From: Thermoplasmata archaeon
GTDB lineage: Archaea > Thermoplasmatota > Thermoplasmata > Thermoplasmatales > GCA-001856825
Length of the DNA: 64,000 nucleotides
Reading direction: 5' to 3'
NCBI GenBank assembly: GCA_021792255.1
Contig: JAJYUZ010000004.1
Span: 32,001-96,000 of the forward strand
Below the pieces are notes generated by a model. The model did not search any database. It was not told the DNA's origin and was given only the letters and a program-made list of their open reading frames with translations. The position numbers were made by a program, and so were the translations under genes. Below, piece after piece: positions 26,250 to 43,934 of the stretch (positions are counted from its first letter, which is position 1; every line of letters starts with the position of its first letter).

Positions 26250-27572
26250 TTGAATCTCGATGAACAGATTTATGAATACAGCACGGGCATTGATGCTCTT
26301 CTAAAGGATAGTTCTACCAGGGAAGAATTGAAGAAGCGAATCGTGGACTCACTTTTTGTATCTTACGGTGCTAGGGACTCAGAGGCTGTCAGGTTATCTA
26401 AGAGGGGACTCTTGCCATCATCTGGTAAGATGAACGCCCCGATCTACTTTGACAAGCGAACCGCTTCTGTCGACATAGCCACTTATCTAAATGGTTGCAT
26501 GACCAGGTATCTCGACTACAATGATACATATCTTTCAAAAGAAGCGCTTCATCCTTCAGATAATATACCTCCAATTTTGAGCTACGCGTACTCTTTGGGT
26601 GAAAGTGGTTTGCAAGTTCTCAGAGCTCTTGCTACGTCTTATCAAGTAGTGGGTGCATTTGCTGATGCATTTTCTATCAGGGACCGGGGGTGGGATCACG
26701 TGACATATATTTCCATCTCTTCAGCCGCGGGATTGGGAGTATTGAATGGTTTTGACAAGTCCAAGTTCATCAACACGCTAAATCTGGCTATAAACAACAA
26801 CATTTCACTTCGTCAGACAAGAGCCGGCGAGTTGAGCATGTGGAAAGGATGCACGGCAGCAAATGCAACGCGCAATTCCGTCTTTGCATCTCTTCTTGCT
26901 AACGAAGGATTTACTGGTCCATCACCAATATTTGAAGGGGAAATGGGGTTCTTCAAGCAGGTCACAGGTAACGTCAGTATCGATCTAAAAAATAACAGAA
27001 TCCTCAGGACGATGATCAAGAATTTTCCGGTTGAATATCACGCAATGAGTGCTGTTGAATCCGCTTTGTGGATAAAAGATCGGTTGAACGGGGAAATGAT
27101 AAATAGCGTAAAGGTCGACACATTTTCGGTAGCGCAAAAGATCATAGTGAAGGACCCAGAAAAGTTAAGACCAAAAACAAAGGAAACTGCGGACCACAGT
27201 TTACCATACATCATTGCCTACACACTCCTCTATGGTGAACCAGATTTAACTTCGTTCGATTCTAGATTCCTGAACGATCCATTGATCTTGAAACTGATAG
27301 ACAAGATGACTTTCAACGTGACAGAAGAATATGATGCTCTGTATCCAGAGTATCTGCCAGTAAAAATATCAGTAAGTACGAAAGCTGGTAGCTTGGATAA
27401 AGAAGTCAAGGTTCCGAAAGGTCATTTCAAGAATCCCTTCGACTGGAAAGACCTCGAGAACAAGGGATTCAAGGTAATGAAAAACAAAGAAAAGGTGAGG
27501 GAAATCATCGAAATTGGTCAGAAATTTGAAAATTCCTCGAGTAGGGACCTGTTTGATTTAGTCCATTCGTGA
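26250..27572 (+). CDS. prpD: MmgE/PrpD family 2-methylcitrate dehydratase
   Basis: RYLDYNDT, HPSDN, GWDH, LRQTRAGELSMWKG, ETADHSLPY. Confidence 0.9.
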   Translation: MNLDEQIYEYSTGIDALLKDSSTREELKKRIVDSLFVSYGARDSEAVRLSKRGLLPSSGKMNAPIYFDKRTASVDIATYLNGCMTRYLDYNDTYLSKEALHPSDNIPPILSYAYSLGESGLQVLRALATSYQVVGAFADAFSIRDRGWDHVTYISISSAAGLGVLNGFDKSKFINTLNLAINNNISLRQTRAGELSMWKGCTAANATRNSVFASLLANEGFTGPSPIFEGEMGFFKQVTGNVSIDLKNNRILRTMIKNFPVEYHAMSAVESALWIKDRLNGEMINSVKVDTFSVAQKIIVKDPEKLRPKTKETADHSLPYIIAYTLLYGEPDLTSFDSRFLNDPLILKLIDKMTFNVTEEYDALYPEYLPVKISVSTKAGSLDKEVKVPKGHFKNPFDWKDLENKGFKVMKNKEKVREIIEIGQKFENSSSRDLFDLVHS

Positions 27573-27634
27573 GTACCACAGTGTCATAGGAAAATTCGTG
27601 AATGAATTTAATAACATGTGAATCATATTATGCT

Positions 27635-28063
27635 ATGCCTGATGCTCTTTTGTTTCCCTCAGAAGAATGGGTAAAGGAATATTGCAAACGGCTCTGCGAA
27701 TCCCCGGACTACAATAAAACTGGGAAAGGTTGGAAAGACCCGATCAAGTTCAAAATGACGGAAATGGGCGATTTGAAGGGAGGAACCTCTTTTGATTCTT
27801 TCATCCTTAATCTTCACGACGGCAAGTGTGATGGATCTGAGATGGTAACTGACCCTGAAAAAACTTCACCGTTTGAGCTGACCGCGACGTACGCTAACTG
27901 GAAGAAAATTATAAGTGGAAAGATAAATCCCACTCAAGCGATGTTGACTGGACAGATGAAAGTGAAAGGGAATATCGCTCTGCTTTTGAGGTATGCATCT
28001 GCTGCAATAGCAATGGTCAAGACAGCTCAGACAATTCCAACTAAGTACCTCGGAGAAGAATGA
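27635..28063 (+). CDS. SCP2 sterol/lipid-binding domain protein (copy 1)
   Basis: FPSEEW...WKKIISGKINPTQAMLTGQMKVKGN. Confidence 0.9.
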   Translation: MPDALLFPSEEWVKEYCKRLCESPDYNKTGKGWKDPIKFKMTEMGDLKGGTSFDSFILNLHDGKCDGSEMVTDPEKTSPFELTATYANWKKIISGKINPTQAMLTGQMKVKGNIALLLRYASAAIAMVKTAQTIPTKYLGEE

Positions 28064-29175
28064 GTCTATTTCAGTTTCCAAGAACTATATATTTTCAGCG
28101 CGACATTTTTGACAGTTTAGGGGACATATTACAGAAGGAAGGGATAAGAAGAGTACTTATTGTGAGTGATAAAATAATAATGGGATTTATTGGAAACAGG
28201 CTAGAAAAGACCCTAGCCCCAATCGAACGAGAACTTTTCGTCGATGTCACTCCTGAGCCGACGATAAGGCAGATTCAAAATGCCTTAACCGCTCTCAAAG
28301 GAAGACATTATGACGCAGTCCTTGCAATAGGAGGAGGAAGCGTCATTGACTTCTCCAAAGCCTTAGCCGTATTGATATCAAATCCAGGGGCCGATTTGAG
28401 TACTATAAGTCCATTCGAAGTCATTAATCTCAAGACTAAGCTAATCGCTATTCCGACAACTTCCGGAACAGGGAGCGATGTCTCATTCGGAGTTGTTCTG
28501 ACCGATGACGAAGGCAAACTGGCACTTGGCAACTACGCACTTGTTCCAGAAATAGACATCCTAGACTCCTCCCTAGCCCCTACAGACAAGAAGATTACGG
28601 CTGCGACCGGAATAGATGCATTTGTCCATTCCTTTGAAGCTATTGCATCAAATACGTCTACGGTGTTTACGGACGCACTTGCAGAGAGGGCAATCGAAAC
28701 GATTTTTCATAACCTAAAGAGAGCAATGGAAAACGAGGAAAATGCAAAGGATTTAATGCATATTTCTGCAACAATGGCCGGAATGGCTTTTTCAAATAGT
28801 GGGACAGCATCGGCCCATGCTCTAGGTCACAGTTTTGGAGCCACATTCCACATAACTCATGGAACTTCAGTTGGTCTGTTCCTTATTCCTTCCATACTTT
28901 TCAATTCACAGAATCAGGAGGCGAAGGAGAAATATTTGAGAGTATGCAGGATCCTAAATGTTAACGACATCGAAGGGCTTATCGAAGAGATAACGAAATT
29001 CTTTAAAGATGTGGGTCAGCCGTGTCGAGTAAGAGATCTAGGAATCGACAGACAGGTCTATGCATCAAAAATTGAGCAGCTCATCTCTCTTTCCATGAGG
29101 GACAGCGAGCTTGCGTTCAATCCAGTTCTAGCAGGAGAAGATGATCTCAGAAAGATTTTTACAGAAACCTACTGA
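28060..29175 (+). CDS. iron-containing alcohol dehydrogenase
   Basis: AIGGGSVIDFSK, IPTTSGTGS, GIDAFVHSFE, AHALGH, HGTSVG. Confidence 0.93.
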   Translation: MSLFQFPRTIYFQRDIFDSLGDILQKEGIRRVLIVSDKIIMGFIGNRLEKTLAPIERELFVDVTPEPTIRQIQNALTALKGRHYDAVLAIGGGSVIDFSKALAVLISNPGADLSTISPFEVINLKTKLIAIPTTSGTGSDVSFGVVLTDDEGKLALGNYALVPEIDILDSSLAPTDKKITAATGIDAFVHSFEAIASNTSTVFTDALAERAIETIFHNLKRAMENEENAKDLMHISATMAGMAFSNSGTASAHALGHSFGATFHITHGTSVGLFLIPSILFNSQNQEAKEKYLRVCRILNVNDIEGLIEEITKFFKDVGQPCRVRDLGIDRQVYASKIEQLISLSMRDSELAFNPVLAGEDDLRKIFTETY

Positions 29176-29179
29176 GTAT

Positions 29180-30055
29180 TTATGATACTATGAAATTGAC
29201 TCCCTTCTGCATCACATTAACCGTTATAGGCGACGTTCCCACCACTTCTCCATCCATTTCAACTAGGTTTCCCTTTTCAGTAAAACGGATCGATTTTACT
29301 TTACTTTCGAATGAAAAATTCTTCTCTATGTAACTTCCGTTCATCAGGTTCCTTAAGCGGAGTATAGTCGTAAGTCTGGACACTGGTTTCAGAATGTGAA
29401 CATCAAGAATTCCATCACTCAAGATGGAGTGAGGTGATGCCAGCATCCCGCCTCCGAAGTACTTTCCATTAGCAACGATAACTTCTATCGTCTCCAAGTC
29501 TTTCTGATCCCCATTTTCTATTCCGGGCTTGAATCTCTTAAGTTTTCGGACGGTGGAAAGAATTCCACGAACAAATGTATACCGACCTCCCTTGGGGTGC
29601 GAATTGACGTATCTCATCACTTCTGCTCCGAATCCTATCTCCAGAACGTTTATGAAGACTCTACTCTTGCCAGTCTCTTCAAAGGTGACGTTCGGTACAT
29701 CAATTCTTTCAACCTTATTTGCTTTCAACGTGCTTATCGACTCTTCCACGCTCCTGACTCCAATCGACTTTCCAAAATCAGAACCTGTTCCAAGAGGTAT
29801 CAATCCAACCTTGATCTCGGAACCTGCCAAACCATTGATCACCTCGTTTAGTGTCCCGTCTCCTCCGCAAGAAACTATGGCATCGTATCCCTTAAGGACG
29901 GCATTCCTCGCTATCTCAGTCGCTTGCAACGATCTCTGGGTAAATTCGACATCATATTCTGAGAAATTTTCTTGTATCAATTTTGCTATTGCTGGCCACT
30001 CCTTTTCTGCCTTCCCCTTCCCAGCGGCGGGGTTGACTATGAATAAAATGCTCAC
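29180..30055 (-). CDS. diacylglycerol kinase catalytic-domain lipid kinase (YegS/DgkB/sphingosine kinase family)
   Basis: IVNPAAGKG, GGDGTLNEVINGL, IPLGTGSDF, NGKYFGGG, DGEV. Confidence 0.93.
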   Translation of the reverse strand: MSILFIVNPAAGKGKAEKEWPAIAKLIQENFSEYDVEFTQRSLQATEIARNAVLKGYDAIVSCGGDGTLNEVINGLAGSEIKVGLIPLGTGSDFGKSIGVRSVEESISTLKANKVERIDVPNVTFEETGKSRVFINVLEIGFGAEVMRYVNSHPKGGRYTFVRGILSTVRKLKRFKPGIENGDQKDLETIEVIVANGKYFGGGMLASPHSILSDGILDVHILKPVSRLTTILRLRNLMNGSYIEKNFSFESKVKSIRFTEKGNLVEMDGEVVGTSPITVNVMQKGVNFIVS

Positions 30056-30099
30056 AGACTTAAAATATCCCTGAAATTAAATGTTATCCGATGGTCTTG

Positions 30100-31668
30100 T
30101 CACTTTTTGTCAAGGATTCCAGGAACGAGCGAATTCTTTGGATCGAAATATGACTTGACCGTTCTAGTCAGGTCATACATAGTACCCTTGTATTCCTGAA
30201 GGTACTTGGACTGCAAATTTCCAATGCCGTGATGGTGCGAGATAGACCCACCCTTCGCCAATATGTTTTCCATTATTCCATCTCGGACTTGATTCAGAAT
30301 AGCTTCCCTGTTGTCTTGTGAATAGAAGAGAAACGTGAAGTAGAGAGCGGATCCAGTAACGTACTGATGAGAAGAATGACACAAGATCATTCCCTTTATC
30401 CCCAGTGTCTCTATGATTTCACTAAATCTCTTCCTGGTAGAGTTGTGGATTTCATCCAGTCTACCCCATTCTGCAGATGTCTCGATGGTCTCTGCCACTA
30501 TTCCTCTCTTAAGCAATTCGTTGTACATCAGGGGTCGTGAATACCTCTCCTTGTTCCAGTATTTCGCTGGGAGAGATCCAAGACTAATGCTGCTTTCAAA
30601 CTTGATCTCTTCCTTCCGGTCGCTGACAGCTATAAGTATTGCCCCTCGCTGATCGTGCATTCTGAGGGCCACGTACTTCTTGAATGCATTGTTGAGGAAT
30701 GTGTCTTCAATCCCAATCATCGAAAGTTCAGTTTCATCCTCATCCGACAATCTGGTTATGATCGGCACTTCTCCTTCTGTAAATTTCTTTCTTAGCGCTT
30801 CCAGTCCATCGCTAAACGACTCAAACATTTGTGCCCTGTAAAAGAGCTGTTTTGGCTTCTTCTGAACCTTCACCCAAGCTCTTGTGACAATGCCGAAGCT
30901 GCCTTCGCTACCAACAGCTAAATCAAATAACTTGAAGAAAGCTGATTCGCCAGGGACTATCCTGTCCTGGTAGGTTCCGGTTGGAGCTTCCATCCTCACA
31001 CCCAGCACCATCTCTTTCACTTTTCCATATCTGTTTGATTCCTGTCCAGCTGCATTGGTTCCAATCCAGCCGCCGAGTGTAGAAAAATGAAAAGATTCAG
31101 GAAAATTTCCGAGAGTCAGTCCGTACTTTTCAAGCTCTTCTTCGATCTTTGGACCTTTCACTCCACCTCCGGCCTCTAGAACATTGTTGTTTCGGTCGAT
31201 CATTAAATAGTCTAGTTTGGACAAGTCAAGACTCACAGAGAATTTTTTTCTGCCCGTTGGGGTGATACCTCCGGTCACTGAAGTGCCTCCTCCAAAGGGA
31301 ATGATCTCTATTTGGTCGTCTGCCTTCCTAAGTAAACATTTTATCTCCTCCTCTACAGGATAGACGACAGCGTCCACGGTCTTGATTGGTTGCACTTCCA
31401 TCAACCTGATATAATCTAGACCTCCTCTCCCAACTGAATGTTTTAGTCTGTCCATTTCGTCAAATTTCACGTTATCTGGTGAAACGCAGGAGTACAAAAT
31501 TTCCTTGAGTTCTGATGAAACAGGAAGGGGATCAATGTTCCTATATCCAGACCAGATGATCTTATCCTCACCTAGACCAACCTTTCGTCTGATATAGGTC
31601 AAAAGGGGCTTACTCATATCGTATTCTTTTTCACTATCTCCCCACAGGGTATACAACTGGCTGCCCAT
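30100..31668 (-). CDS. FAD-linked alkyl-dihydroxyacetonephosphate synthase-like oxidoreductase
   Basis: PFGGGTSVTGG, FPESFHFSTLGGW, GSEGSFGIVT, ETIETS, CHSSHQYVTGSALYF, ISHHHGIG (AGPS-type HHH). Confidence 0.85.
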   Translation of the reverse strand: MGSQLYTLWGDSEKEYDMSKPLLTYIRRKVGLGEDKIIWSGYRNIDPLPVSSELKEILYSCVSPDNVKFDEMDRLKHSVGRGGLDYIRLMEVQPIKTVDAVVYPVEEEIKCLLRKADDQIEIIPFGGGTSVTGGITPTGRKKFSVSLDLSKLDYLMIDRNNNVLEAGGGVKGPKIEEELEKYGLTLGNFPESFHFSTLGGWIGTNAAGQESNRYGKVKEMVLGVRMEAPTGTYQDRIVPGESAFFKLFDLAVGSEGSFGIVTRAWVKVQKKPKQLFYRAQMFESFSDGLEALRKKFTEGEVPIITRLSDEDETELSMIGIEDTFLNNAFKKYVALRMHDQRGAILIAVSDRKEEIKFESSISLGSLPAKYWNKERYSRPLMYNELLKRGIVAETIETSAEWGRLDEIHNSTRKRFSEIIETLGIKGMILCHSSHQYVTGSALYFTFLFYSQDNREAILNQVRDGIMENILAKGGSISHHHGIGNLQSKYLQEYKGTMYDLTRTVKSYFDPKNSLVPGILDKK

Positions 31669-31763
31669 GAATAGATAAGAGTGTCAGCTTATATTTCAGT
31701 TTCTGGACTAGAAAATTTTAACTGAAACGGATGAAACCTTCCAAAAGACGAGTCTTTTATTGG

Positions 31764-31778
31764 AAAACTGGTAAATAT
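31764..31778 (+). promoter_or_regulatory. BRE/TATA-like promoter of the zinc-finger microprotein
   Basis: A-rich BRE-like element followed by TAAATAT, 27 nt before ATG 31806 (leaderless spacing). Confidence 0.45.
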
Positions 31779-31805
31779 CTGACCGTCATTTACAACAGAC
31801 AAGTT

Positions 31806-31895
31806 ATGCCATGTAAGTGCAAGACGTGCGGAGAAATGTTTCCGAGTGCTAAGCAGAGAGATGCTCACGCGGCTAAGTCCCATGCCAAAAAGTAA
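31806..31895 (+). CDS. 29-aa single C2H2 zinc-finger microprotein
   Basis: Below the ORF-track cutoff; MPCKCKTCGEMFPSAKQRDAHAAKSHAKK = C-x2-C-x3-F-x8-H-x4-H. Confidence 0.8.
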   Translation: MPCKCKTCGEMFPSAKQRDAHAAKSHAKK

Positions 31896-32040
31896 CTTCG
31901 CCGCGCAGTCCCATGTCGACTCTGAAAATGACTGGATTAGGCAGGGAACTGACCTGTAATTAGGCTAGTCCGATCGACACGACATTCTGAGAGTAAATAA
32001 TCAAACTAATGACAAAGAATTTGTACCTCTTTCTGAATGA

Positions 32041-32982
32041 TTGATAGTGAGATTCTTAACAGTTTTGCCTGAATTTATTCCATCTTCTTCCGTGAGAGAA
32101 ACTATCAACCAAATTTTGCCAGAGATGGAAATTGTCAACGGCTTGAACTTTGAAAAAAATGAAGCGGACGTTCTTGTGGCGACGACTTTCACGAGGCTGG
32201 GAAAAGAAGAATTGAGGAAATTTCCAAACCTAAAATATCTACAAATTGCTAGTACAGGATACGACAACGTCGATCTATCATATCTGAAAGAGAAGGGTAT
32301 AATGATTTGCAACGTTCCTGTGGCAAACAAACAAAGCGTTGCTGAACACGTCATAGCTTTTATGCTGATATTTTTGAAAGATATGCTCTTTCTGAACGCC
32401 GAGCTGAAGGAGAGAAAAAGTTGGCCTATTCTTACTGGTTCGAGGGACCTCGAAGGAAAGATGGTGGGGATACTCGGAATGGGAATGATAGGTACTCAAC
32501 TTGCGAGGAGACTCATTGCGTTCGGGCCTTCTCTTCTCTATTACGACCCGAGGAGGCTAAGTCTAGAAGATGAGGAAAAGTATGGCCTTAACTACGTTTC
32601 ATTCGAAGACCTGCTATCAAACTCTGACATAATTTCAGTTCACATGCCGTTGACACCTGCTACTAGTGGCATGTTCAACGAAGATACATTCTCCAAGATG
32701 AAAGACGGAGCGATATTTATTAACACTTCAAGAGGAGAAATTGTGGTCGAAAAGGCTTTAATAAGTGCAGTAAAAAAGAAAGGAATAAAGGCTGGAATAG
32801 ACGTATATGTCAAAGAACCTCCCGATTTTGATTCCGAACTCTTCAAGCTTGATAATGTGATTTGCTCCCCTCATATCGCAGGCGTGACTGCAGAAAGCCA
32901 GCAGAGATTTCTGACTGAAACGATTTCAAATGTACTCAGATATGCGCAGGGTATCGATCCGCTTTACAGGGTGGAACTTTGA
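32041..32982 (+). CDS. D-isomer-specific 2-hydroxyacid dehydrogenase
   Basis: STGYDNVD, VAEH, GILGMGMIG, FINTSRGEIV, DVYVKEPP, SPHIAG. Confidence 0.93.
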   Translation: MIVRFLTVLPEFIPSSSVRETINQILPEMEIVNGLNFEKNEADVLVATTFTRLGKEELRKFPNLKYLQIASTGYDNVDLSYLKEKGIMICNVPVANKQSVAEHVIAFMLIFLKDMLFLNAELKERKSWPILTGSRDLEGKMVGILGMGMIGTQLARRLIAFGPSLLYYDPRRLSLEDEEKYGLNYVSFEDLLSNSDIISVHMPLTPATSGMFNEDTFSKMKDGAIFINTSRGEIVVEKALISAVKKKGIKAGIDVYVKEPPDFDSELFKLDNVICSPHIAGVTAESQQRFLTETISNVLRYAQGIDPLYRVEL

Positions 32983-36260: not shown

Positions 36261-36393
36261 TTTGGTACTATATGAAATGCAGAGATAATATATGTTTGTA
36301 GCTGAGTCGGTGTTTGAATTCCGGCTATCTAGCGGGTTTCAGATGAAGAATTCTATTGGAAATATATAAGTAACCCTCACAGCATACTAATCT

Positions 36394-37680
36394 ATGCAAC
36401 AGCAGCCAGAAAATCTGGCGCCAAGCAACAGAAGATGGCTTGTTCTTGTTGGGTACATGCTAATATCCATGTCGTCTCAGATCATCTGGCTAAATTTTGC
36501 CGGGATCGTTTCACCTCAAATGGAAAACATTTTCAATGTGGGTCTAGGACCAATCAGTCTCATGTCAGGTCTCTGGCCACTAGTGTTCATTCCTATTTCG
36601 ATTCCTACAGGCCTCATGGTCGACAGGTGGGGATTCAAGAAAGTCGTTTCCATAGGTGGAGGAATATTGGTAGTGTTTTCGTGGCTGAGGTTACTTAGCG
36701 GTGGGAGTTTTGAGCTGTTGTTCGTGTTTCAAAGCTTGGCTTCGGTGGGACAGCCATTCGTATATAATGGAATTTCTAAGCTCGCAGGAAACTGGTTCCC
36801 GGAGGGAGAACAAGCTCTTGCAAACGGAATTGCTACCATGGGTCAGATAATTGGTATGATCATTGCGCTTGTGCTTGTCCCCATAATGGTTCCTAGTGCC
36901 AGCTTTGCTCTCCTGCAAACCAACATGGTCGTGGTATCCCTCATCGTCACAATATCGGTTGTATTCTTCCTCGTCTTTTCAAAAGAAAATCCGGGCACTA
37001 TGGTTGTCAGTCCCGTGGTTCAGGAGAAGGTCAGTTTTCAGATTAGACATCTACTCAAGATGAAGAACATGATCCTTCTTATGATTCTCTTCTTGATCGG
37101 GGTAGGAATATTCAGTGGTCTGATACAGTGGGTGGAGGCAATTCTGTTTTCAAAAGGAATCTCTTCCCTTTACGGCGGCCTCATCGGAGCAGGAATGCTA
37201 ATTAGTGGTATCTTTGGGATGGTGATCATACCTCTACTCGCCGATAAGTATTCGAAACTGAAACAGGTGGTGATAGTGAATGCTTTACTGGTTGCAGTAC
37301 TTCTGTTCCTATTCAGTCTCAGGGTAAATCTACTGTACTACGCAATAATAGGAATCATTCTTGGATTCACTCTGCTCTCTCTGGCTCCGGTCGTCCTTCA
37401 GATATCTCTAGAGACTGCTGGAAAGGAACGAGCAGGGACTGCTGCGAGTGTCATCTGGCTGACATCTCAGGTGGGAGCGTTATTCTTCATCCTAATCATG
37501 CCTGCTCTCAACACCTTCCAGCTGAGCATGAACATCCTGGTCTCTGATCAGTGGTTCATAGCACTCGTATTCTCCGGAATCACGATGCTGGTGGCGGTGT
37601 TACTAGGTGCCATGTTAAATGACACCAGAAAAGGAAAGAGCATCAGACAAGGATCAGAGTCCCCGAAATCTAACTCTTAA
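36394..37680 (+). CDS. MFS transporter, FLVCR/SLC49-like
   Basis: About 12 TM segments; RRWLVL...IWLNFA, VDRWG, GQPF, WFPEGEQALA, LADKY. Confidence 0.85.
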   Translation: MQQQPENLAPSNRRWLVLVGYMLISMSSQIIWLNFAGIVSPQMENIFNVGLGPISLMSGLWPLVFIPISIPTGLMVDRWGFKKVVSIGGGILVVFSWLRLLSGGSFELLFVFQSLASVGQPFVYNGISKLAGNWFPEGEQALANGIATMGQIIGMIIALVLVPIMVPSASFALLQTNMVVVSLIVTISVVFFLVFSKENPGTMVVSPVVQEKVSFQIRHLLKMKNMILLMILFLIGVGIFSGLIQWVEAILFSKGISSLYGGLIGAGMLISGIFGMVIIPLLADKYSKLKQVVIVNALLVAVLLFLFSLRVNLLYYAIIGIILGFTLLSLAPVVLQISLETAGKERAGTAASVIWLTSQVGALFFILIMPALNTFQLSMNILVSDQWFIALVFSGITMLVAVLLGAMLNDTRKGKSIRQGSESPKSNS

Positions 37681-37697
37681 TTATCTCCTTGGAGGTC

Positions 37698-39242
37698 TCA
37701 AGTCGAGTTGCTTTGTCTCAAACTCTTTCTGTTGTTTCGGTAGTAGTCGATGAACTGATGGAATTCTCTTTCGTATAAAGAATTCTCTTCCATGTCTGGT
37801 AGATGATCCACAAAAGGCGCTCCCAGGTCAGAAAGATCGGAAAACTTCAATTTATCTAATCCCACAGCCGAGATCATAGCTGCGCCATTCACGGTCGAGA
37901 ATCTCTGATCACTGACCACCCTTATCTTTCTACCGAGCACGTTCGCAAATATCGTCGCCCTAAGGGAAGACAATGCACCTCCGCCGCTCATGTACAATTC
38001 TTCTATCCTCTTTCCAGTGAATTTTTCGACCGTGTTCAGGAGCCACTTAGAGTTAAGCGCAACTCCTTCCATTGTCGACCTAACGACGTCGGCCTTGTTG
38101 TTTTCCAAGGAAAGATTATAGAAACCTCCTCTGACATATGGATCTTCGATCGGGGCCCTTTCTCCGAACAACCAAGGAAGAAACATAAGGCCCCTAGAAC
38201 CAGGCTCTGACTTAGAGACCAGGTCATCGATGACGGAATACTTATCTTCCCCTGTAATGTTTAAGAGATCTGAGACGAAGTCCATGCTATTACACGCACT
38301 TTCTTGCTCTGCTGCAACGAAGTATTTACCAGTAATTCCGCTTGGAAGGGATGCAACATTATGGAATATGTCAGTTTTTTTGAAAGATACGTGAGAGGTT
38401 ATCCACGATGAGGTACCCAAATAGATGAGAGATTTGTAATCCTCAATGCACCCTGCTCCTATCAATGAACAGGCGACGTCTCCGCAACCCGAAACCACTT
38501 TCACACCTTTCACCCCGAGCTTGGATTCCACCTCTTCCTTCAACGATCCAACCAAATCAGTAGGCTTGATCACTTGAGGAAGTTTTTCCTTTAAAATCCC
38601 AGACATCCTCAGCAATCCGTCGTCGTAGGTCACGTTCCACGGATCTCTGTTGTCCGTCGACCAAAGCAGGGTCAGATTGTCCCAGGAGGCCTTGAAATTT
38701 CCGGTCAGTTTTGCAGCAATGTAATCTTTTGGTTCCAAGAACTTGTACGTCTTTTCATAGATGTCGGGGAGGTTGTGCTTTATGTATAATATATGGGCGA
38801 GAGAATCCTTTCCCGAATGGGCTGGTGCGCCTCCCGTTTTTCTCAACCATTTGATCAGCTTGTCGAGCCTGTATCCAGAAATCGAGGGAAAGCCAGATGT
38901 CAGTTTGCTGATTTCATCGCTACCTCGTGTATCCATCCAAATGATTGCATTGCTGATTGCATCACCGTTTCTGTCCACCGGGACTGTTCCGGACCACTGT
39001 CCCGTCAACCCAATTCCCTTTATCTCTAAGCCGTCAGATTCAGCGACTATTTCTTCCATTCCATCCATCACAGAATTATACCACTCTGCCGGGTTCTGCT
39101 CAGCCTCTCCTCCATTTCCTATTTTAAGGCCGTACTTTCTGGTTACTCTCCCCCTAGTCACCCTTTCCTCGTCGACGAGGGAGATCTTCACAGAAGATGT
39201 TCCGAGATCAATTCCTATAAAAGCATCTTTCATTTTCAACAC
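37698..39242 (-). CDS. FGGY-family kinase (xylulokinase-like)
   Basis: IGIDLGTSSVK, EQNPAEW, TGQWSG, WMDTR, YLGTS, PWLFGERAP, EGVA, SGGGA. Confidence 0.92.
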   Translation of the reverse strand: MLKMKDAFIGIDLGTSSVKISLVDEERVTRGRVTRKYGLKIGNGGEAEQNPAEWYNSVMDGMEEIVAESDGLEIKGIGLTGQWSGTVPVDRNGDAISNAIIWMDTRGSDEISKLTSGFPSISGYRLDKLIKWLRKTGGAPAHSGKDSLAHILYIKHNLPDIYEKTYKFLEPKDYIAAKLTGNFKASWDNLTLLWSTDNRDPWNVTYDDGLLRMSGILKEKLPQVIKPTDLVGSLKEEVESKLGVKGVKVVSGCGDVACSLIGAGCIEDYKSLIYLGTSSWITSHVSFKKTDIFHNVASLPSGITGKYFVAAEQESACNSMDFVSDLLNITGEDKYSVIDDLVSKSEPGSRGLMFLPWLFGERAPIEDPYVRGGFYNLSLENNKADVVRSTMEGVALNSKWLLNTVEKFTGKRIEELYMSGGGALSSLRATIFANVLGRKIRVVSDQRFSTVNGAAMISAVGLDKLKFSDLSDLGAPFVDHLPDMEENSLYEREFHQFIDYYRNNRKSLRQSNST

Positions 39243-39250
39243 TACCCTGT

Positions 39251-40645
39251 CTAATGGCTATAAAGCCATTCAACGACACTCTTCAAGAAGACGTCAGTAG
39301 ATTCCTTCGGCAACACAGAAGCCATCCCATAGATCGGTGCCATCGATGAGGCCTTGACGCTCCCTTTCTTCACCGAGTCCACTGCACCGCTAAGGTCTAT
39401 GACAAATTTCTCCTTAACATCTTCTAAGGTATGCCTGTGAGTAAGAGCAATATGGAATCCTGCAGGATTTGAGAGTCCGTTCAGCATCCATCCCCTCTTC
39501 GACATAGCCTCCCAGACCAGATAAGGGTCGAATTCCCCAGATGATATTGCTATTACCCAGAGCGGATTTCCAATGTACTTGAGTCCTGGAATCTTTTCAA
39601 TAGATTTCTTGATGTAGTCCCCTGCGTCAAGTATCTTCTTTGCTTCTTGAGTGTAACCATTCCTACCCATCAACAGCATGGCGGCCCAAGCAGCCACGAT
39701 AGGGTATCCCGGTCTGCTTCCCAAAAGAGTGGGGGTGAAATATATGCCTCCTTGCCAGGAAGCTGTAGCGTAGATCTGATTTTGGAAATAATCGCCATTC
39801 CTGTACAACACTACAGACGTTCCTTTCGGGGCGTAACCGTACTTATGAGTATCCATCGAAATCGAGGTCACACCGCTGACGGAGAAATCGAAGTCTGGAA
39901 AATCGTAACCAGCATCCCTCACAAACGGATCCATAAATCCTCCCAGACAGGCGTCGACGTGCATCCCTATCTTCTTATCTTCTGCGACTTCCGCCAGTTC
40001 CTCAATCGGATCGAATGTACCGAACGGGAAATTGGGCATAGATCCTACTATTGCGACAGTGTTTCCACTCATCAGTTCCTTTACCATGGCAACGTCTGCT
40101 CTATAATTCTCATCCAGTCCGACTATGACTGGCTTGATAGAGAAATACTCGCACGCTTTCAGAAAGGATGGATGAGCGGTTGATGGCAGAACTATCTCAG
40201 GTTCCGTTATTCCTCTCTTTTTCCTGAAGAAATCCCTGTAGGTCTTCATTGCAAGCAGTATGCTCTCCGTCCCGCCAGATGAAACGGCACCTCTCACACC
40301 ATCGTCACCGTGCATCAGCGATGACGACATGCTGACTATTTCTCTCTCGAATTTCGGAATACTGGGCCAAACATCTGGGTGTAGAGCATTTGTCTGTGAT
40401 ACAAGATGGTATAGTTTCTCGTAGAAAGAAAGTAACGGTTCATCACCATAATAAACTGCCCCTGAAACCTTTCCCTCTTTCCAGGATTGGCTTTCCTTCT
40501 TTGCAAAGCCTGATAAGGTATTTAGCAAGAAATCCTCCCCTAAGCCCTTATCCGGCATCCTGACAAAATTTGATTCGGGTGAGTCGTATGGTTTTAGATC
40601 TTTCTGCAATTCATTTAACACGGAACCAAAATCTATTCCGTTCAT
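39251..40645 (-). CDS. sphingosine-1-phosphate lyase-like PLP enzyme (group II decarboxylase fold)
   Basis: GKVSGAVY, NALHPDVWP, SGGTESILLA, HVDACLGGF, SISMDTHKYGYAPKGTSVVLYR, WQGGIYFTPTLLGSRPG, GWMLNGL. Confidence 0.88.
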   Translation of the reverse strand: MNGIDFGSVLNELQKDLKPYDSPESNFVRMPDKGLGEDFLLNTLSGFAKKESQSWKEGKVSGAVYYGDEPLLSFYEKLYHLVSQTNALHPDVWPSIPKFEREIVSMSSSLMHGDDGVRGAVSSGGTESILLAMKTYRDFFRKKRGITEPEIVLPSTAHPSFLKACEYFSIKPVIVGLDENYRADVAMVKELMSGNTVAIVGSMPNFPFGTFDPIEELAEVAEDKKIGMHVDACLGGFMDPFVRDAGYDFPDFDFSVSGVTSISMDTHKYGYAPKGTSVVLYRNGDYFQNQIYATASWQGGIYFTPTLLGSRPGYPIVAAWAAMLLMGRNGYTQEAKKILDAGDYIKKSIEKIPGLKYIGNPLWVIAISSGEFDPYLVWEAMSKRGWMLNGLSNPAGFHIALTHRHTLEDVKEKFVIDLSGAVDSVKKGSVKASSMAPIYGMASVLPKESTDVFLKSVVEWLYSH

Positions 40646-40774
40646 GATTTTATAATTGATTCTTCCGTATTTTAACCTTGTCTAATATGAAAATATCCTT
40701 CCCGAACACAGACAAATCTCTGATTTAGAGCGTACTGTAAACTATTATATACGAGAGAATACATATTTATTCAA

Positions 40775-42199
40775 ATGAAGAACAAAGTGCTATTTATTGC
40801 GCTCCTAATTTCTATCGTGATACTACTTCCTGCCGTAAGTGGCTCTATTTCCCAGCCGGGAGAAAGAACTCCAATAAAACACGTAATAAACATATATTTT
40901 GAAAATCATACCTTTGACAACTTCTTTGGAACTTACCCCAGAAATCCCTCTTCTTCTGGACAATCCATCATCGCTAACATTTCTAAACCTCTCAACCTTC
41001 TAAACAATTCGTCTCTATTGAACAGCTTGACACCAGTATCAGCGGGAACGTTCAGCACTCCCAATCCAGTCGAAGGTTATACTGCCTATCACTTGGATTG
41101 GAACCACGGTGCAATGAATGGTTTTACAACTGGAAGCGGTCCCTCATCTATGACATATTATACCTCGGCTCAATTGGGCCCAATTTGGGATCTGTCAGAA
41201 GAATATGGAATGGGCGATAGGTACTTCGCATCCACTATTTCTGAAAGCGCTCCAAACACTCTTTATTACCTTGCGGGATTCTCGCCGTTAATAAATGACT
41301 ATGGGCCTCCACCGTCGATTCCAATCAATGAAACTATTTTTGGTGAACTGAACCAGTATAATATCCCATGGGGCGTATACGTAAGCGGAAACTACAAGAG
41401 TTTCGATATGTCCAGCATGATACAGGGAATAGCGTCTTATTCCAGCGATATCAACAGCTGGAGTACTTTCTTACAGCAGCTGGGAAACGGAACACTTCCA
41501 TCAGTAAGTTACGTGTTTTCTCAAGGTGGGAACGGGTACGACACAGGTGCCCCAGGGAGTCTGCTAAAGGGTGAGTTGTGGCTCCTTGCATTGGTAAATG
41601 CAATTGAGGCTAGTCCGATCTGGGACAACACGGTCGTGTTCATAACTTGGGATGATCCGGGAGGATACTACGATCAGCTCTCTCCTCCAGTCGTGGCCGG
41701 ACAACAACTTGGTATGAGACTCCCATTTATCGTGGTTTCACCATTTGCGAAGGAAAACTACATTTCGAACACTGTCCTGACTCACTCATCTATTCTTGCG
41801 TTCATTGACTATAATTGGGGAATTCCGGCCTTGAACAGTTTTGTATCCGGGGTGAACATTCCGCTCGACTTCTTTGATTTCAACGTATCAAGGCCAGCCA
41901 TGACTTTTAATTTTGGAAACACCATCTCGGTCCCAACGAACCTTGATTTCAACCTTACTTCGAGTGATTCGTCATCAAACCTATCCGCCACATTTCCGCT
42001 GAGCCCTCAAATGCCATTCAGTTCTTTGCACTATGCAGCACACGGCGAGATCAATTACACTCTGTCTTCGACAGGGGCTGGTATCCTGGTAAAGAATGAC
42101 GTGACGCTGTCTCCCTTCTACGCTTCGCCATACTTGCTTCTGGTACTGATCCTAGCGTGCGTAGCAGTGGTTGAATATCTGCCAAGGAGGAAGGTGTAA
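40775..42199 (+). CDS. exported phosphoesterase/phospholipase C family protein (AcpA/PlcH type) with C-terminal membrane anchor
   Basis: Signal peptide, IKHVINIYFENHTFDNFFG, MNGF, TWDDPGGYYD, GMRLPFIVVSPFAK, HSSILAFI..NWG. Confidence 0.88.
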   Translation: MKNKVLFIALLISIVILLPAVSGSISQPGERTPIKHVINIYFENHTFDNFFGTYPRNPSSSGQSIIANISKPLNLLNNSSLLNSLTPVSAGTFSTPNPVEGYTAYHLDWNHGAMNGFTTGSGPSSMTYYTSAQLGPIWDLSEEYGMGDRYFASTISESAPNTLYYLAGFSPLINDYGPPPSIPINETIFGELNQYNIPWGVYVSGNYKSFDMSSMIQGIASYSSDINSWSTFLQQLGNGTLPSVSYVFSQGGNGYDTGAPGSLLKGELWLLALVNAIEASPIWDNTVVFITWDDPGGYYDQLSPPVVAGQQLGMRLPFIVVSPFAKENYISNTVLTHSSILAFIDYNWGIPALNSFVSGVNIPLDFFDFNVSRPAMTFNFGNTISVPTNLDFNLTSSDSSSNLSATFPLSPQMPFSSLHYAAHGEINYTLSSTGAGILVKNDVTLSPFYASPYLLLVLILACVAVVEYLPRRKV

Positions 42200-42200
42200 A

Positions 42201-42770
42201 ATGACGACAGCAAGCGAAAAGAAAGGTGCAAAAACACTCTCGGGCATTATTCGGGGAGCTATTCCAGGCTCTTTGCTCACAACGGGCATTTTGCTTTCCT
42301 ATGGATACGTCAGCGGAATTATCTACAGTATAGGAGATACGAGACAACTGATACCAGTTTTTACCGGTATAATCATCGGTGCCATCGTTTTTTCTCTGAT
42401 CGGTTTTATCCTAAGACCAACACAAATAAACATTATTTCACTGACCATCTTTTCTTTGGTTCTCTTGATTGCAGCCTATGTAATCATATCTCTCAACTCG
42501 CTCGTCCTAAATAGCACCAATATGATGATTGTGGCATTTCTTATGGGTTCGCCAGCAATGGCAGTATCACAACTCGTAGGCGACAGTTCTGCTCACTATT
42601 CTTTCATAAAGAGGGTGATCTTCGGATCCGTTCAGGCTGTTCTCGTAATAGTGTTCATCTTTGTCTTTTCACTGGAGTATGAAATGCAAGGGCAGGTGAA
42701 TCTCTATTCCGGTCCGCTACTCTTCCTGGCTCTCTCACTCGCGTATCTAATAGTGTTAAAAACCGTGTGA
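42201..42770 (+). CDS. multi-pass membrane protein, likely co-transcribed with the phosphoesterase
   Basis: About 6 hydrophobic segments; ATG 1 nt after the upstream stop, with AGGTG upstream. Confidence 0.7.
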   Translation: MTTASEKKGAKTLSGIIRGAIPGSLLTTGILLSYGYVSGIIYSIGDTRQLIPVFTGIIIGAIVFSLIGFILRPTQINIISLTIFSLVLLIAAYVIISLNSLVLNSTNMMIVAFLMGSPAMAVSQLVGDSSAHYSFIKRVIFGSVQAVLVIVFIFVFSLEYEMQGQVNLYSGPLLFLALSLAYLIVLKTV

Positions 42771-42880
42771 AAAGATTTCTTGGTGCTTAAGTTGGAACAG
42801 TAAAGTCGATCTTGCTCAAATATTCCAAAAATACCACACGGGCTATCATATTGCTTTGAATAGTTAGAAGCAATCACTCG

Positions 42881-43399
42881 ATGAAAATGATCGAATCTCC
42901 CTGGGTAGTTTTTTTGGACTTGGACGGCACGCTCTGGGATCATCTAGACATTACAGCTGCTAGTCCACCTTTCACAAGAATTTCCGAATCAATAATTTCC
43001 GATTCTCTTGGAGTAAGAATCTCATTACTACCAGGAGCAGTCGATTTCATAAAGTGGGTACGTTCAAGTGGAGGAATTATCTCTACATGTAGCTGGAATG
43101 AATACGACAAAGCTATCGGTGCCCTTGAGGCATACGGCATAGTTCATTTGTTCGATTATCAGAAGGTTTCGACTAATCCAAAAAAATATCTCTTGATGGA
43201 GGAAGTGATAAGTAAGCTTGTCCAGAAAGGGGTCTCTGTCAGGATGGACAGACTCTTCTATTTAGACGATAGGGATATTCACATTAGTGACGTGAAGGTC
43301 AGATTTCCGGAACTGACTTTCTTTCTGATGTGGAAGAACGGGACGAACTACGAAAGCGTAAAGAGTACGATCCTGTCCAAGATCAAAGGAACGCAGTGA
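42881..43399 (+). CDS. magnesium-dependent phosphatase-1 (HAD subfamily IIIC)
   Basis: FLDLDGTLWDH, CSWN, PKK, YLDDR. Confidence 0.88.
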   Translation: MKMIESPWVVFLDLDGTLWDHLDITAASPPFTRISESIISDSLGVRISLLPGAVDFIKWVRSSGGIISTCSWNEYDKAIGALEAYGIVHLFDYQKVSTNPKKYLLMEEVISKLVQKGVSVRMDRLFYLDDRDIHISDVKVRFPELTFFLMWKNGTNYESVKSTILSKIKGTQ

Positions 43400-43511
43400 T
43401 TCTGAGCGGATTGGGCAAGATATCTGATTTTCGATCACGAGAACTCTCTAGATCAGGAACAAACATAAGAGTTACCCCAAAAATTTAATATTGCAAGTTA
43501 ATGAAAAAAAT

Positions 43512-43934
43512 ATGGCCGAGAAACTCCTTTTCCCCTCCGAAGAATGGATCAAGGATTACTGTTCAGTGTTGTCTCAGTCTCAAGAATATAACCGACTGGG
43601 ACAGGGGTGGAAAGACTCAGTCCAGTTCAAGATAACGGACTTTGCTGACAAGAACTTAGGATTAGATTACGAGTCGTTTGTCCTTGACCTAAGGGATGGT
43701 AGGTGTGAAAGATATCATCTCATCAGGGAGGATGTTGAGAGCGCACCGTTCGTTCTGTACTCGTCATACTCTGACTGGAAACGAATCCTAGAAGGAAAAG
43801 TAAATCCTACCCAAGCTATGCTGAGCGGCGTATTGAAGGTAAAGGGAGATATGGTAACTTTGCTAAAATATGCGGCAGCTGCGACTGAAATGGTAAAGGC
43901 AGCAGAAAAAATAGAAACCAGATTCGAAATCTAA
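43512..43934 (+). CDS. SCP2 sterol/lipid-binding domain protein (copy 2)
   Basis: FPSEEW...WKRILEGKVNPTQAMLSGVLKVKGD; clear paralog of 27635-28063. Confidence 0.9.
   Translation: MAEKLLFPSEEWIKDYCSVLSQSQEYNRLGQGWKDSVQFKITDFADKNLGLDYESFVLDLRDGRCERYHLIREDVESAPFVLYSSYSDWKRILEGKVNPTQAMLSGVLKVKGDMVTLLKYAAAATEMVKAAEKIETRFEI

Follow-up and report, generated by a model that had tools for sequence, protein, structure and literature searches.

Genes of the 18-kb segment

The window analysed here is a stretch of 64,000 nucleotides from an acid-mine archaeon, and every gene family that the original prediction had listed for an 18-kb segment of it was found, by Pfam and NCBIfam searches, at or near the place where it had been put (Table 1). 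A five-TM protein without family was missing from that list. The original observation is thus confirmed, and its interpretation, one archaeal cluster for the catabolism of sphingolipids and other eukaryotic lipids, is partly supported.

Table 1. Genes of the 18-kb segment, with positions in the window, strand and basis of assignment.
Gene product	Position	Strand	Basis or best match
MmgE/PrpD-family protein	26250-27572	+	Pfam/NCBIfam
SCP2a	27602-28063	+	Pfam/NCBIfam
Fe-ADH	28060-29175	+	Pfam/NCBIfam
DAGK_cat+YegS_C kinase (YegS/BmrU-type)	29180-30055	-	TIGR00147, 137 vs cut-off 118
ADPS-like flavoprotein	30100-31668	-	236 bits vs Dictyostelium ADPS; next FAD oxidase 75 bits
2-hydroxyacid dehydrogenase (2HADH)	32041-32982	+	Pfam/NCBIfam
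ThDP enzyme	32979-34520	+	benzoylformate-decarboxylase-like, 213 bits
AOR	34515-36260	-	Pfam/NCBIfam
FLVCR-like MFS	36394-37680	+	sole PDB sequence matches FLVCR1/2, 87 bits
FGGY kinase, 514 aa	37698-39242	-	FGGY_N + FGGY_C domains
S1P-lyase-family PLP enzyme, 464 aa	39251-40645	-	483 bits to StSPL (3mad)
PF04185 phosphoesterase (AcpA/PLC type)	40775-42199	+	Pfam/NCBIfam
Five-TM protein, no family	42171-42770	+	
MDP-1-type HAD phosphatase	42881-43399	+	TIGR01685, 95.5 vs cut-off 53.75
SCP2b lipid-carrier domain protein	43491-43934	+	SCP2, 50.9 bits

The lyase and its kinase

Judged by its sequence, the PLP enzyme is a true member of the S1P-lyase family in an archaeon, as had been claimed. It scores 364 bits against human SPL and 123 against the decarboxylase MfnA, as against 483 for the Symbiobacterium thermophilum enzyme StSPL (PDB 3MAD, 3MAF, 3MAU), to which it is 46% identical. 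Both are of the soluble type, devoid of the N-terminal TM helix that eukaryotic SPLs carry. In the alignment, K268, Y65, N86 and H89 correspond to StSPL K311, Y105, N126 and H129, and K274, S310, H158 and D231 to K317, S353, H201 and D274; all residues assigned to PLP and phosphoethanolamine binding in StSPL (excerpts of PMC10243590) are retained, and they are invariant across 14 diverse homologs. The archaeal protein begins about 40 residues later than StSPL, within the latter's flexible N-terminal region, and so lacks most of that region.

Directly downstream of the lyase, and in one operon with it, lies the FGGY kinase, which a genome search found to be the sole FGGY gene of this archaeon. 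Its best family is xylulokinase, yet its 271 bits fall below the cut-off of 380; its catalytic Asp and ATP motifs align with those of E. coli XylB. Lyase-linked FGGYs form a clade of their own (support 100), whose members have in common a GQWSGT signature and about nine inserted residues. Among the best 80 lyase loci in public genomes, 77 of them bacterial, an FGGY gene adjoins the lyase in 69, and 67 of these kinases belong to the lyase-linked clade, the other two being distant FGGYs. Downstream of the StSPL gene itself (L079) comes an FGGY kinase that has 43% identity to that of the window. Of the 11 loci without FGGY, seven lie where the contig runs on for less than 1.6 kb on the usual kinase side, two, both bacterial, carry a DAGK-type kinase directly upstream (in L045 the order is EEP-family phosphoesterase, DAGK, lyase), and two have neither kinase. 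An MFS homolog adjoins the lyase in 10 of the 80 loci, the Actinomycetota showing an MFS-lyase-FGGY layout, and no HAD phosphatase was found next to the bacterial FGGY-lyase pairs of this sample. In both the lyase and the FGGY tree, a well-supported bacterial clade (100 and 96) excludes the archaeal sequences.

Within the genus, 9 of 17 relatives possess the lyase. FGGY and HAD phosphatase are each present in 9/9 lyase-bearing and 0/8 lyase-lacking members, and orthologues of the MFS and of SCP2b (the latter at 64% identity or more) in 8/9 and 0/8, the single miss of each lying at a contig end. Outside the genus, three loci (G036, G018 and L025) combine lyase, FGGY and HAD, with an MFS homolog near, in three arrangements; the HAD gene adjoins the FGGY-lyase pair in each, and in G036 an SCP2-MFS pair adjoins HAD-FGGY-lyase. 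In family f7 the HAD gene is unlinked to the lyase and is also present in a lyase-lacking genome (G144). Linkage of SCP2 to the module is confined to two archaeal lineages, and the window's genome has five SCP2 genes. The upstream regions of the module genes showed no common operator motif.

The common operon, the pattern of presence and absence, and the deep archaeal/bacterial split in the trees identify the neighbouring FGGY kinase, and not the DAGK-family kinase, as the one coupled to the lyase. The proposed pairing of kinase and lyase was therefore right in that a kinase adjoins the lyase, but wrong as to which. This pair is ancient and widespread in bacteria, includes the gene of the structurally characterised StSPL, and points to an undescribed route of sphingoid-base breakdown. 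A literature search found no paper that describes it, nor did such searches find an archaeal pathway of the kind envisaged, as the prediction had said.

A candidate route for free sphingoid bases

The lyase, the FGGY kinase, the FLVCR-like MFS, the HAD phosphatase and SCP2b make up an accessory five-gene module in 36394-43934, and from sequence comparison I hold with about even confidence that it phosphorylates and then cleaves free sphingoid bases. A free long-chain 2-amino-1,3-diol, presumably a sphingoid base derived from dead fungi, algae or bacteria, would be taken up and held by SCP2b, and its C1 hydroxyl would be phosphorylated by the FGGY kinase, a role suggested by the conserved operon. 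The lyase would then split C2-C3 to give a long-chain aldehyde and phosphoethanolamine, as its orthology to StSPL and the complete conservation of active-site residues imply. The aldehyde would be oxidised by the neighbouring AOR, or in sister species by an NAD(P) aldehyde dehydrogenase, and the product handed on to acyl-CoA ligases and dehydrogenases whose genes lie outside the segment. The HAD phosphatase, which bears a DLDGT motif, is a candidate phosphoethanolamine phosphatase that would free ethanolamine and phosphate, and the MFS would transport ethanolamine or bring in the substrate.

Eukaryotes degrade sphingoid bases by LCB/sphingosine kinase, S1P lyase (Dpl1/SGPL1) and fatty aldehyde dehydrogenase, and the order of steps is matched here, with AOR or ALDH nearby; three Planctomycetota loci offer an analogue, encoding FGGY, lyase and aldehyde dehydrogenase consecutively. 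The archaeal set differs in that its kinase is of the FGGY and not the DAGK_cat family, its lyase is soluble, aldehyde oxidation in the window's genome would fall to a tungsto/molybdo-pterin AOR, and a HAD phosphatase, an FLVCR-like MFS and SCP2 are added. Prokaryotic handling of exogenous sphingoid bases is exemplified by the sphingosine response of Pseudomonas aeruginosa (SphR, sphA, sphBCD, cerN). Its enzymes are of a wholly different kind and are not known to include a kinase or PLP lyase.

The rest of the genome, which is 93.6% complete, narrows the possible substrates. Searches of it found no member of the ceramidase families PF04734 and PF05875, for which the control genomes were silent too, and none of the EEP sphingomyelinase family PF03372, for which the control was valid; at most free sphingoid bases would thus be handled, and not complex sphingolipids. 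Of the functions that the prediction had found wanting in the window and sought elsewhere, ceramidase was accordingly not found, whereas six ACAD and four AMP-binding matches of beta-oxidation type do occur. The sole alpha-oxoamine synthase is Kbl-type and not SPT, and by this check the genome shows no sign of its own sphingoid-base synthesis.

The same chemistry might instead serve a small polar substrate, a short 2-amino-1,3-diol or an amino-polyol akin to serinol, threoninol or aminobutanetriol, imported by the MFS, phosphorylated by FGGY and cleaved to phosphoethanolamine and a short aldehyde. FGGY kinases act on small sugars and polyols, as the xylulokinase match recalls, and small amino alcohols are the cargo of FLVCR transporters, the choline/ethanolamine carriers FLVCR1/2 being the only PDB sequences that the MFS matches; these substrate ranges suit a small polar substrate just as well. 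I know of no FGGY kinase with a lipid substrate, and sphingoid-base phosphorylation, if true, would be a new activity for the family. Moreover, the layout of transporter, kinase and lyase seen in Actinomycetota is typical of imported-solute catabolism. I nevertheless consider this reading rather unlikely. StSPL, itself a member of this FGGY-linked clade, breaks down S1P both in vitro and in blood, and although its natural role was not known to its authors, they thought catabolism of environmental sphingolipids probable (available text of PMC3148216); SPLs also have a narrow hydrophobic tunnel leading to the active site (excerpts of PMC10243590). SCP2 accompanies the module in both archaeal lineages mentioned, and the replacement of FGGY at two bacterial loci is by DAGK-type lipid kinases. 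Finally, no small amino-diol is known to me that is abundant enough in nature to account for so broad a distribution.

Separable units around the lyase

Neighbourhoods of lyase homologs bear out the supposed co-occurrence only in part. That the grouping in the 18 kb exceeds chance is evident from the frequent FGGY-lyase adjacency and from a genome of another family (G164), in which most of the genes cluster around the lyase within about 22 kb in changed order (DAGK, ADPS-like, ALDH, Fe-ADH, SCP2, ThDP, 2HADH, phosphoesterase, five-TM, MFS, FGGY and lyase); in L025, ThDP, 2HADH, phosphoesterase, lyase, FGGY and HAD lie together. One could then regard the whole 18 kb as an integrated sphingolipid/eukaryotic-lipid pathway, with the DAGK-family enzyme as sphingosine kinase and ADPS-like, Fe-ADH, AOR, 2HADH, ThDP, phosphoesterase and PrpD as further steps, 2HADH and the ThDP decarboxylase perhaps shortening 2-hydroxy acids derived from phytosphingosine. 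The distribution of the genes makes this quite improbable. Eight genus members lack lyase, FGGY, HAD and MFS, and all five of the eight that were checked retain at least one other unit. DAGK, ADPS-like, Fe-ADH, SCP2a, 2HADH, ThDP, AOR and phosphoesterase were all traced in relatives without the lyase, often scattered over several places (three in G012), which means that they are not dependent steps of a single sphingolipid pathway; G144, too, has no lyase yet retains DAGK, GlpD-like, ADPS, ALDH, Fe-ADH and SCP2. Even in G164, DAGK, ADPS, Fe-ADH and SCP2 are only 30-35% identical to those of the window, against 48-60% for the other genes, which suggests a different history. The failure to find a ceramidase (controls silent) also counts against a single pathway. 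The 18 kb is thus several separable units, although a looser lipid-scavenging island is conceivable from the reclustering in G164.

The SCP2a/Fe-ADH/DAGK/ADPS-like unit (27602-31668) is intact in lyase-lacking G012, G014 and G015, and the 2HADH/ThDP/AOR unit (32041-36260), which would lead from a 2-hydroxy/2-oxo-acid through an aldehyde to an acid, is found in lyase-lacking G010, G014 and G015. AOR may also accept the lyase's aldehyde. Among 18 genomes of the genus nine have AOR and seven an NAD(P) aldehyde dehydrogenase in its stead, none both, and this distribution is independent of the lyase. Aldehyde-oxidising enzymes and SCP2 carriers do lie near the lyase, as noted originally, but AOR, Fe-ADH and SCP2a persist in relatives that lack it. 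A simple hydropathy scan of the phosphoesterase shows a hydrophobic, signal-like stretch at its N-terminus and a TM segment at its C-terminus, and the protein is predicted to be exported and membrane-anchored. Together with the five-TM protein it is a separate unit inside the module (40775-42770), kept in lyase-lacking G012 and G014 and adjoining the lyase in L025 and G164. PrpD, formerly counted as a cluster member, is unlinked and outside the system: it sits elsewhere in lyase-lacking G010, G012, G014 and G015 (by DNA match only) and is absent from the G164 region.

It is hardly credible that the lyase homolog is a group II decarboxylase in vivo that supplies beta-alanine for CoA or converts phosphoserine to phosphoethanolamine, while the kinase acts on another substrate: fold and PLP chemistry are common to MfnA- and GAD-type decarboxylases and no other group II decarboxylase match in G000 is better than E 8e-4, but SPLs are far closer, every phosphoethanolamine-site residue is retained, lyase-lacking G010, G012 and G015 (90-93% complete) have no substitute either, so that the homolog is not an essential CoA-pathway enzyme, and tight kinase pairing across phyla suits a phosphorylate-then-cleave scheme.

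The ADPS-like gene, which is independent of the lyase, resembles alkyl-DHAP synthase (ADPS/AGPS; PDB 2UUU, 4BBY), and the catalytic residues of the guinea-pig enzyme, R419, Y578 and H615-617, align with identical residues in it. Here the gene is archaeal, with a YegS-type kinase as partner, and its unit possibly performs alkyl-DHAP (ether-lipid) chemistry; I know of no acyl-DHAP pathway in archaea. A GlpD-like oxidoreductase and DAGK accompany the gene in G164, G144 and G178, and in 16 of 20 Thermoplasmata loci its partner is a GlpD-like FAD oxidoreductase.

The lyase and its partner kinase

All the families that the original prediction named in the 18-kb region were recovered at its coordinates by Pfam and NCBIfam scans, and its claim of an S1P-lyase-like enzyme holds. 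The PLP enzyme scores 483 bits against the S1P lyase of Symbiobacterium thermophilum (StSPL, PDB 3MAD; 46% identity by BLASTP), 364 against human and 345 against yeast SPL, versus 123 for MfnA and at most 78 for GAD, and by bit score it is nearer to the SPLs than to group II decarboxylases. In StSPL, according to the structural review PMC10243590, PLP is held by K311, H201, D274, G168, T169, H310 and S353, and the phosphate or phosphoethanolamine group by Y105, N126, H129, K317 and S353. Aligned with StSPL, the window lyase has an identical PLP lysine (DTHK motif) and contacts (K268, H158, D231, G125-T126 and H267) and an identical phosphate/phosphoethanolamine site (Y65, N86, H89, K274 and S310). 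All PLP- and phosphoethanolamine-site residues are invariant across a 14-homolog alignment, down to 48% identity. Judged from its sequence, the protein is a genuine member of the S1P lyase family (EC 4.1.2.27), with cleavage of long-chain base 1-phosphates as its predicted function. The reading as a beta-alanine/CoA decarboxylase was rejected on the scores, the active-site residues and the patchy distribution.

The window lyase has neither a eukaryotic-type N-terminal membrane anchor nor most of the flexible, basic N-terminal region of StSPL (residues 1-57), and a sequence scan found no TM-like segment; its residue 11 pairs with residue 52 of the 3mad chain, so that it starts within this flexible region, some 40 residues later than StSPL. 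Prokaryotic SPLs likewise have no TM helix according to PMC3148216, which also reports S1P breakdown by StSPL in vitro and in blood, and whose authors call its natural function unknown, probably environmental sphingolipid catabolism. Several Thermoplasmatales also carry a second, paralogous clade of lyase-like proteins, which may be lyases or decarboxylases; they are about 465 aa long, share 33-40% identity with the window lyase and have no FGGY kinase ortholog adjoining.

For the neighbourhood comparison I took, from public genomes with one genome per species, the best 80 of some 600 or more lyase loci, 3 of them archaeal and 77 bacterial (Chloroflexota, Myxococcota, Actinomycetota, Thermodesulfobacteriota, Spirochaetota, Planctomycetota, Bacteroidota and others). 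An FGGY homolog adjoins the lyase on the same strand in 69 of these 80; it belongs to one clade, 37-77% identical to the window's kinase, in 67 loci and is a distant FGGY (25-26%) in two (L067 and L070). In the S. thermophilum locus itself (L079) the FGGY gene directly follows the lyase. Eleven loci have no FGGY, and in seven of them the contig runs for less than 1.6 kb on the usual kinase side. A YegS-type DAGK_cat kinase directly upstream of the lyase replaces FGGY in L040 and L045, the latter in the order EEP-family phosphoesterase, DAGK_cat kinase, lyase, and neither kind of kinase stands beside the lyase in L032 and L094. When the 1117 ORFs of 82 loci were clustered all against all, no further gene proved to be conserved alongside the two; ABC ATPases turned up in 10 loci, ALDH in 8 and MFS in 8. 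An FLVCR-like MFS accompanies the pair in 8-10 loci, mostly from Actinomycetota, and an aldehyde dehydrogenase comes immediately after the lyase in three Planctomycetota loci.

The window kinase is the sole FGGY gene of its genome. It contains both FGGY_N and FGGY_C domains (Pfam), and its DLGTSS, GCGD and SGGGA stretches are in register with E. coli XylB, the catalytic and ATP motifs being kept. It reaches none of the NCBIfam subfamily cut-offs (the best is XylB, 271 bits versus 380), and no characterised FGGY subfamily, whether xylulokinase, glycerol kinase or others, claims it by that measure. With the rest of the lyase-linked clade it has in common two features that are absent from non-linked FGGYs, a GQWSGT motif and an insertion of some nine residues, the latter in the region of residues 118-145 (approximate) of the window protein. 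The FGGY matches in G008 and G036, two related genomes, each have one TAA inside, reflecting either a match edge or a real break. The FGGY-kinase/S1P-lyase pair is solid, pan-prokaryotic and apparently undescribed so far; full-text searches, largely of non-subscription journals, brought up no paper on a link between an FGGY kinase and S1P lyase or on an S1P lyase from archaea.

Distribution and descent of the module

Among 17 genomes of the window's genus, with a lyase ortholog taken as 77% identity or more, nine bear the lyase (G002, G005, G006, G007, G008, G009, G011, G013 and G017) and eight, which are 61-93% complete, lack it (G001, G003, G004, G010, G012, G014, G015 and G016). The FGGY kinase (at least 73% identity) and the HAD phosphatase (E <= 1e-5) are each present in 9/9 lyase-bearing and 0/8 lyase-lacking genomes, and the MFS (at least 72%) and the SCP2b type (at least 64%) in 8/9 and 0/8, respectively, both misses falling at contig ends. 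In lyase-lacking G012 the phosphoesterase and a five-TM protein come directly after AOR; MFS, FGGY and lyase are missing from one side, and HAD and SCP2b from the other. G036, G018 and L025, from outside the genus, have also retained lyase, FGGY and HAD; each arranges them differently, with an MFS homolog close by, and in G036 an SCP2-MFS pair adjoins the lyase/FGGY/HAD genes. The lyase is rare in Thermoplasmatota, occurring in 2 of 400 other sampled genomes at E <= 1e-100. In the window's genus, then, three further genes join the pair, for an FLVCR-like transporter, an MDP-1-type phosphatase and an SCP2 carrier.

A PDB sequence search with the MFS gave five matches only, all of them to FLVCR1/2, which are choline/ethanolamine carriers, at 78-87 bits; on the NCBIfam subfamily model it reaches 78 against a cut-off of 392. 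The HAD phosphatase passes the MDP-1/HAD-IIIC model (TIGR01685, 95.5 versus 53.75) and its DxDxT motif reads DLDGT; its PDB MDP-1 match is only 29 bits. Directly downstream of the module are genes for a 332-aa protein of no family, secreted and membrane-anchored, and for a GH12-like glycoside hydrolase with a weak match (28.8 bits versus a cut-off of 27); the stretch is rich in exported hydrolases.

Where did the pair come from? In a quick ML tree with 94 lyases and archaeal paralogs as root (SH-aLRT support only), the window's genus groups with G036 and L025 (99), the 77 bacterial sequences have a clade of their own (100), and two further archaeal sequences lie between the two on long branches. 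A similarly quick FGGY tree, rooted on paralogs and again with SH-aLRT support only, unites 75 lyase-linked kinases (100), which split into 14 archaeal (99) and 60 bacterial (96) sequences with one long bacterial branch outside both. From both topologies, therefore, lyase and kinase share a deep archaeal/bacterial split. A recent transfer from a sampled bacterial phylum was rejected, as in both trees the archaeal sequences fall outside the bacterial clade and no donor phylum is apparent; G018 and L027 are on long branches. Lyase identities to the window's protein do not follow kinship, being 60% for G164 (another family) and 50% for G018 (the same family), an order reversed for ThrRS (about 49% and 65%), which suggests transfer of the lyase within the order Thermoplasmatales, the single-marker ThrRS calibration being weak. 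ThrRS itself gave no match at E <= 1e-50 in same-genus G012 (93% complete), G036 or G081 and was matched in G018 and G164; perhaps this is one of two ThrRS types, or perhaps matches were missed with so long a query.

Neighbouring units that stand alone and regather

The original prediction took the whole 18 kb as one sphingolipid/eukaryotic-lipid catabolic cluster. Its observations are confirmed and its interpretation is partly right: across related genomes the module genes track the lyase, the other units persist without it yet regather in G164, and a single pathway spanning the region is unlikely. The DAGK-family gene, proposed as the pathway kinase, lies 9 kb from the lyase in a different transcription unit and shows no genomic coupling to it, being kept beside the ADPS-like gene in lyase-lacking G012, G014 and G015. 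It is of YegS type (PF00781, 106.7 bits; C-terminal PF19279, 77.7 bits; TIGR00147, 137 versus 118) and matches human SphK1 with only 34 bits over 75 residues. PrpD, another gene of the proposed cluster, is located elsewhere in lyase-lacking members of the genus.

In those lyase-lacking members SCP2a, Fe-ADH, DAGK and the ADPS-like gene remain together; in G012 they form one unit, with AOR and the phosphoesterase far off. Also kept there are the 2-hydroxyacid dehydrogenase (2HADH) and ThDP decarboxylase genes, with or without an aldehyde oxidiser, and the phosphoesterase with its five-TM protein. The aldehyde oxidiser alternates among 18 genomes (AOR in nine, NAD(P) ALDH in seven, both in none, neither in two incomplete ones) whether or not the lyase is present, and in G013 ALDH sits exactly at the AOR position, between the ThDP and MFS genes, which looks like non-orthologous replacement. 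Read most simply, 2HADH, ThDP decarboxylase and AOR/ALDH would make up a route from 2-hydroxy/2-oxo-acid through aldehyde to acid, which may also take the aldehyde from the lyase.

The phosphoesterase has a PF04185 domain (192.6 bits), a hydrophobic N-terminal segment of the export-signal kind and a C-terminal anchor segment. It scores 113 bits against AcpA (2d1g) versus 51-61 against PLCs and, because no domain besides PF04185 was found, is of the short AcpA type. No shared operator motif was found upstream of MFS, lyase, phosphoesterase, HAD, SCP2b, 2HADH, ADPS and AOR in up to 10 genomes, the alignments of these eight regions showing only gene-specific BRE/TATA-like blocks.

The ADPS-like flavoprotein matches Dictyostelium alkyl-DHAP synthase with 236 bits versus 75 for the next FAD oxidase and contains the VAO-type FAD domains PF01565 and PF02913. 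R419, Y578 and H615-617 (the HHH loop), which I take to be the catalytic residues of guinea-pig ADPS (4bby), all pair with identical residues in the window protein, as expected for EC 2.5.1.26. In a class-wide Thermoplasmata sample a GlpD-like FAD oxidoreductase gene (PF01266; 242 bits on the NCBIfam glycerol-3-phosphate dehydrogenase model versus a cut-off of 360) directly follows the ADPS-like gene in 16 of 20 loci, and in G164, G144 and G178 a DAGK gene comes next. The window's genome has its GlpD-like homolog (44% identity) elsewhere, and the YegS-type kinase adjoins the ADPS-like gene instead. The ADPS-like/GlpD-like pair may be an ether-lipid or alkyl-DHAP unit, and its spread in Thermoplasmata is relevant to the unsolved problem of ether-lipid turnover. 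In G164 it shares an operon with YegS-type kinase, Fe-ADH, ALDH and SCP2 genes, and from this gene set one may conjecture a route for alkyl-glycerol-type lipids in which a kinase step would be followed by oxidation to alkyl-DHAP, an ADPS-type exchange freeing the alcohol, and alcohol oxidation. In the spacer that separates the ADPS-like gene from 2HADH lies a 29-codon ORF for a C2H2-type zinc-finger mini-protein (MPCKCKTCGEMF...H..KSH), and the same start is visible in the ortholog region of G008.

G164, a complete single-contig genome from another family, has a comparable gene set within one 22-kb stretch (percentages are identities to the window's proteins). A first block (-) comprises DAGK (35%), GlpD-like FAD oxidoreductase, ADPS-like (35%), ALDH, Fe-ADH (33%), SCP2, ThDP (49%) and 2HADH (58%); a second (+) phosphoesterase (48%), five-TM protein (35%) and MFS (53%); and a third (-) FGGY (51-60% over two pieces) and lyase (60%). 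Its lyase-lacking congener G144 has only DAGK through SCP2 and a 40-residue ThDP remnant, and G032 keeps ALDH, SCP2, ThDP and 2HADH only. Because the units gather repeatedly yet also stand alone, related functions, perhaps in the use of foreign lipids, fit better than a single obligatory pathway. A Mutator-family transposase borders the G164 island.

Positions of the features discussed (window positions unless a genome, contig or locus is named; G, genome; C, contig; L, locus)
Feature	Position	Strand	Related positions
ThrRS	24163-26118		
Region of the original prediction	26250-43934		
DAGK-family kinase	29180-30055		
ADPS-like flavoprotein (ADPS-like/GlpD-like loci at right)	30100-31668		L133-L147; L151; L159:6132-7496
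Zinc-finger mini-protein	31806-31895	+	
Tungsto/molybdo-pterin AOR (AOR / NAD(P) ALDH alternation loci at right)	34515-36260		L014:2983-4476; L021:14604-16097
Module, MFS to SCP2b	36394-43934		
S1P-lyase-family enzyme	39251-40645	-	
Genes directly downstream of the module	44164-46361		
GlpD-like homolog, window's genome (G000)	C6:97991-99235		
Three acyl-CoA dehydrogenase matches and one ligase match, window's genome	C3:400-405 kb		
SCP2a/Fe-ADH/DAGK/ADPS unit, G012	C4:138-143 kb		AOR and phosphoesterase, 464-469 kb
Paralogous lyase-like genes (examples)			G013:C54:16432-17490; G032:C1:791220-792293; G029:C1:156310-157380
FGGY matches with an internal TAA			G008:C82:8059-9573; G036:C21:9937-11472
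Mutator-family transposase	L159:1523-2695		

Substrate and possible role

What does the module act on? Free sphingoid bases have an evenly balanced claim to be its substrate; that it handles a small polar amino-diol instead is rather improbable. Returning to sphingoid bases, I offer a broader reading tentatively and with more doubt than confidence: the lyase-linked FGGY clade would be a hitherto unrecognised family of sphingoid-base kinases, forming with S1P lyase an ancient two-gene module for long-chain-base catabolism or detoxification, common to Thermoplasmatota and at least nine bacterial phyla and, in some Thermoplasmatales, incorporated into a bigger island that scavenges foreign membrane lipids. 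In that island an ether-lipid route would use the YegS-type kinase, the GlpD-like oxidase and the ADPS-like enzyme towards alcohol release, followed by Fe-ADH and by ALDH or AOR; a second route would employ 2-hydroxyacid dehydrogenase and ThDP decarboxylase in a CoA-independent step resembling alpha-oxidation.

Ever since the StSPL structure appeared, with environmental sphingolipid catabolism as its authors' guess, the natural role of prokaryotic S1P lyases has been a matter of conjecture, and a conserved partner kinase from an unexpected family makes the question directly testable. If the pair acts on sphingoid bases, this would be a new enzyme activity for FGGY kinases and the first sphingolipid-related pathway in archaea, and it would explain how sphingoid bases are turned over by many bacteria that are uncultured, and by some archaea, in soils, sediments and acid mine drainage. 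DNA near-identical to the window occurs in mine-drainage, mine-tailings and sediment metagenomes, several of these runs possibly being the assembly's own source.

The window's genome (Thermoplasmatales, 1.59 Mb in 11 contigs, 93.6% complete) has one alpha-oxoamine synthase gene, of Kbl type. Endogenous synthesis of sphingoid bases was rejected, as this sole gene passes the Kbl/BioF cut-offs and not that of SPT (378 versus 640). The original prediction had noted no ceramidase, acyl-CoA ligase or beta-oxidation genes in the window. Neutral (PF04734) and alkaline (PF05875) ceramidase models have no match in the genome, a result that does not establish absence because the control genomes were silent for both. 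The EEP family (PF03372) has no match either, with controls positive in 10/14. Acyl-CoA dehydrogenases (PF00441; controls 9/14) and AMP-binding ligases (PF00501; controls 12/14) are found elsewhere in the genome, with six and four matches, respectively, and three of the former lie together with one of the latter.
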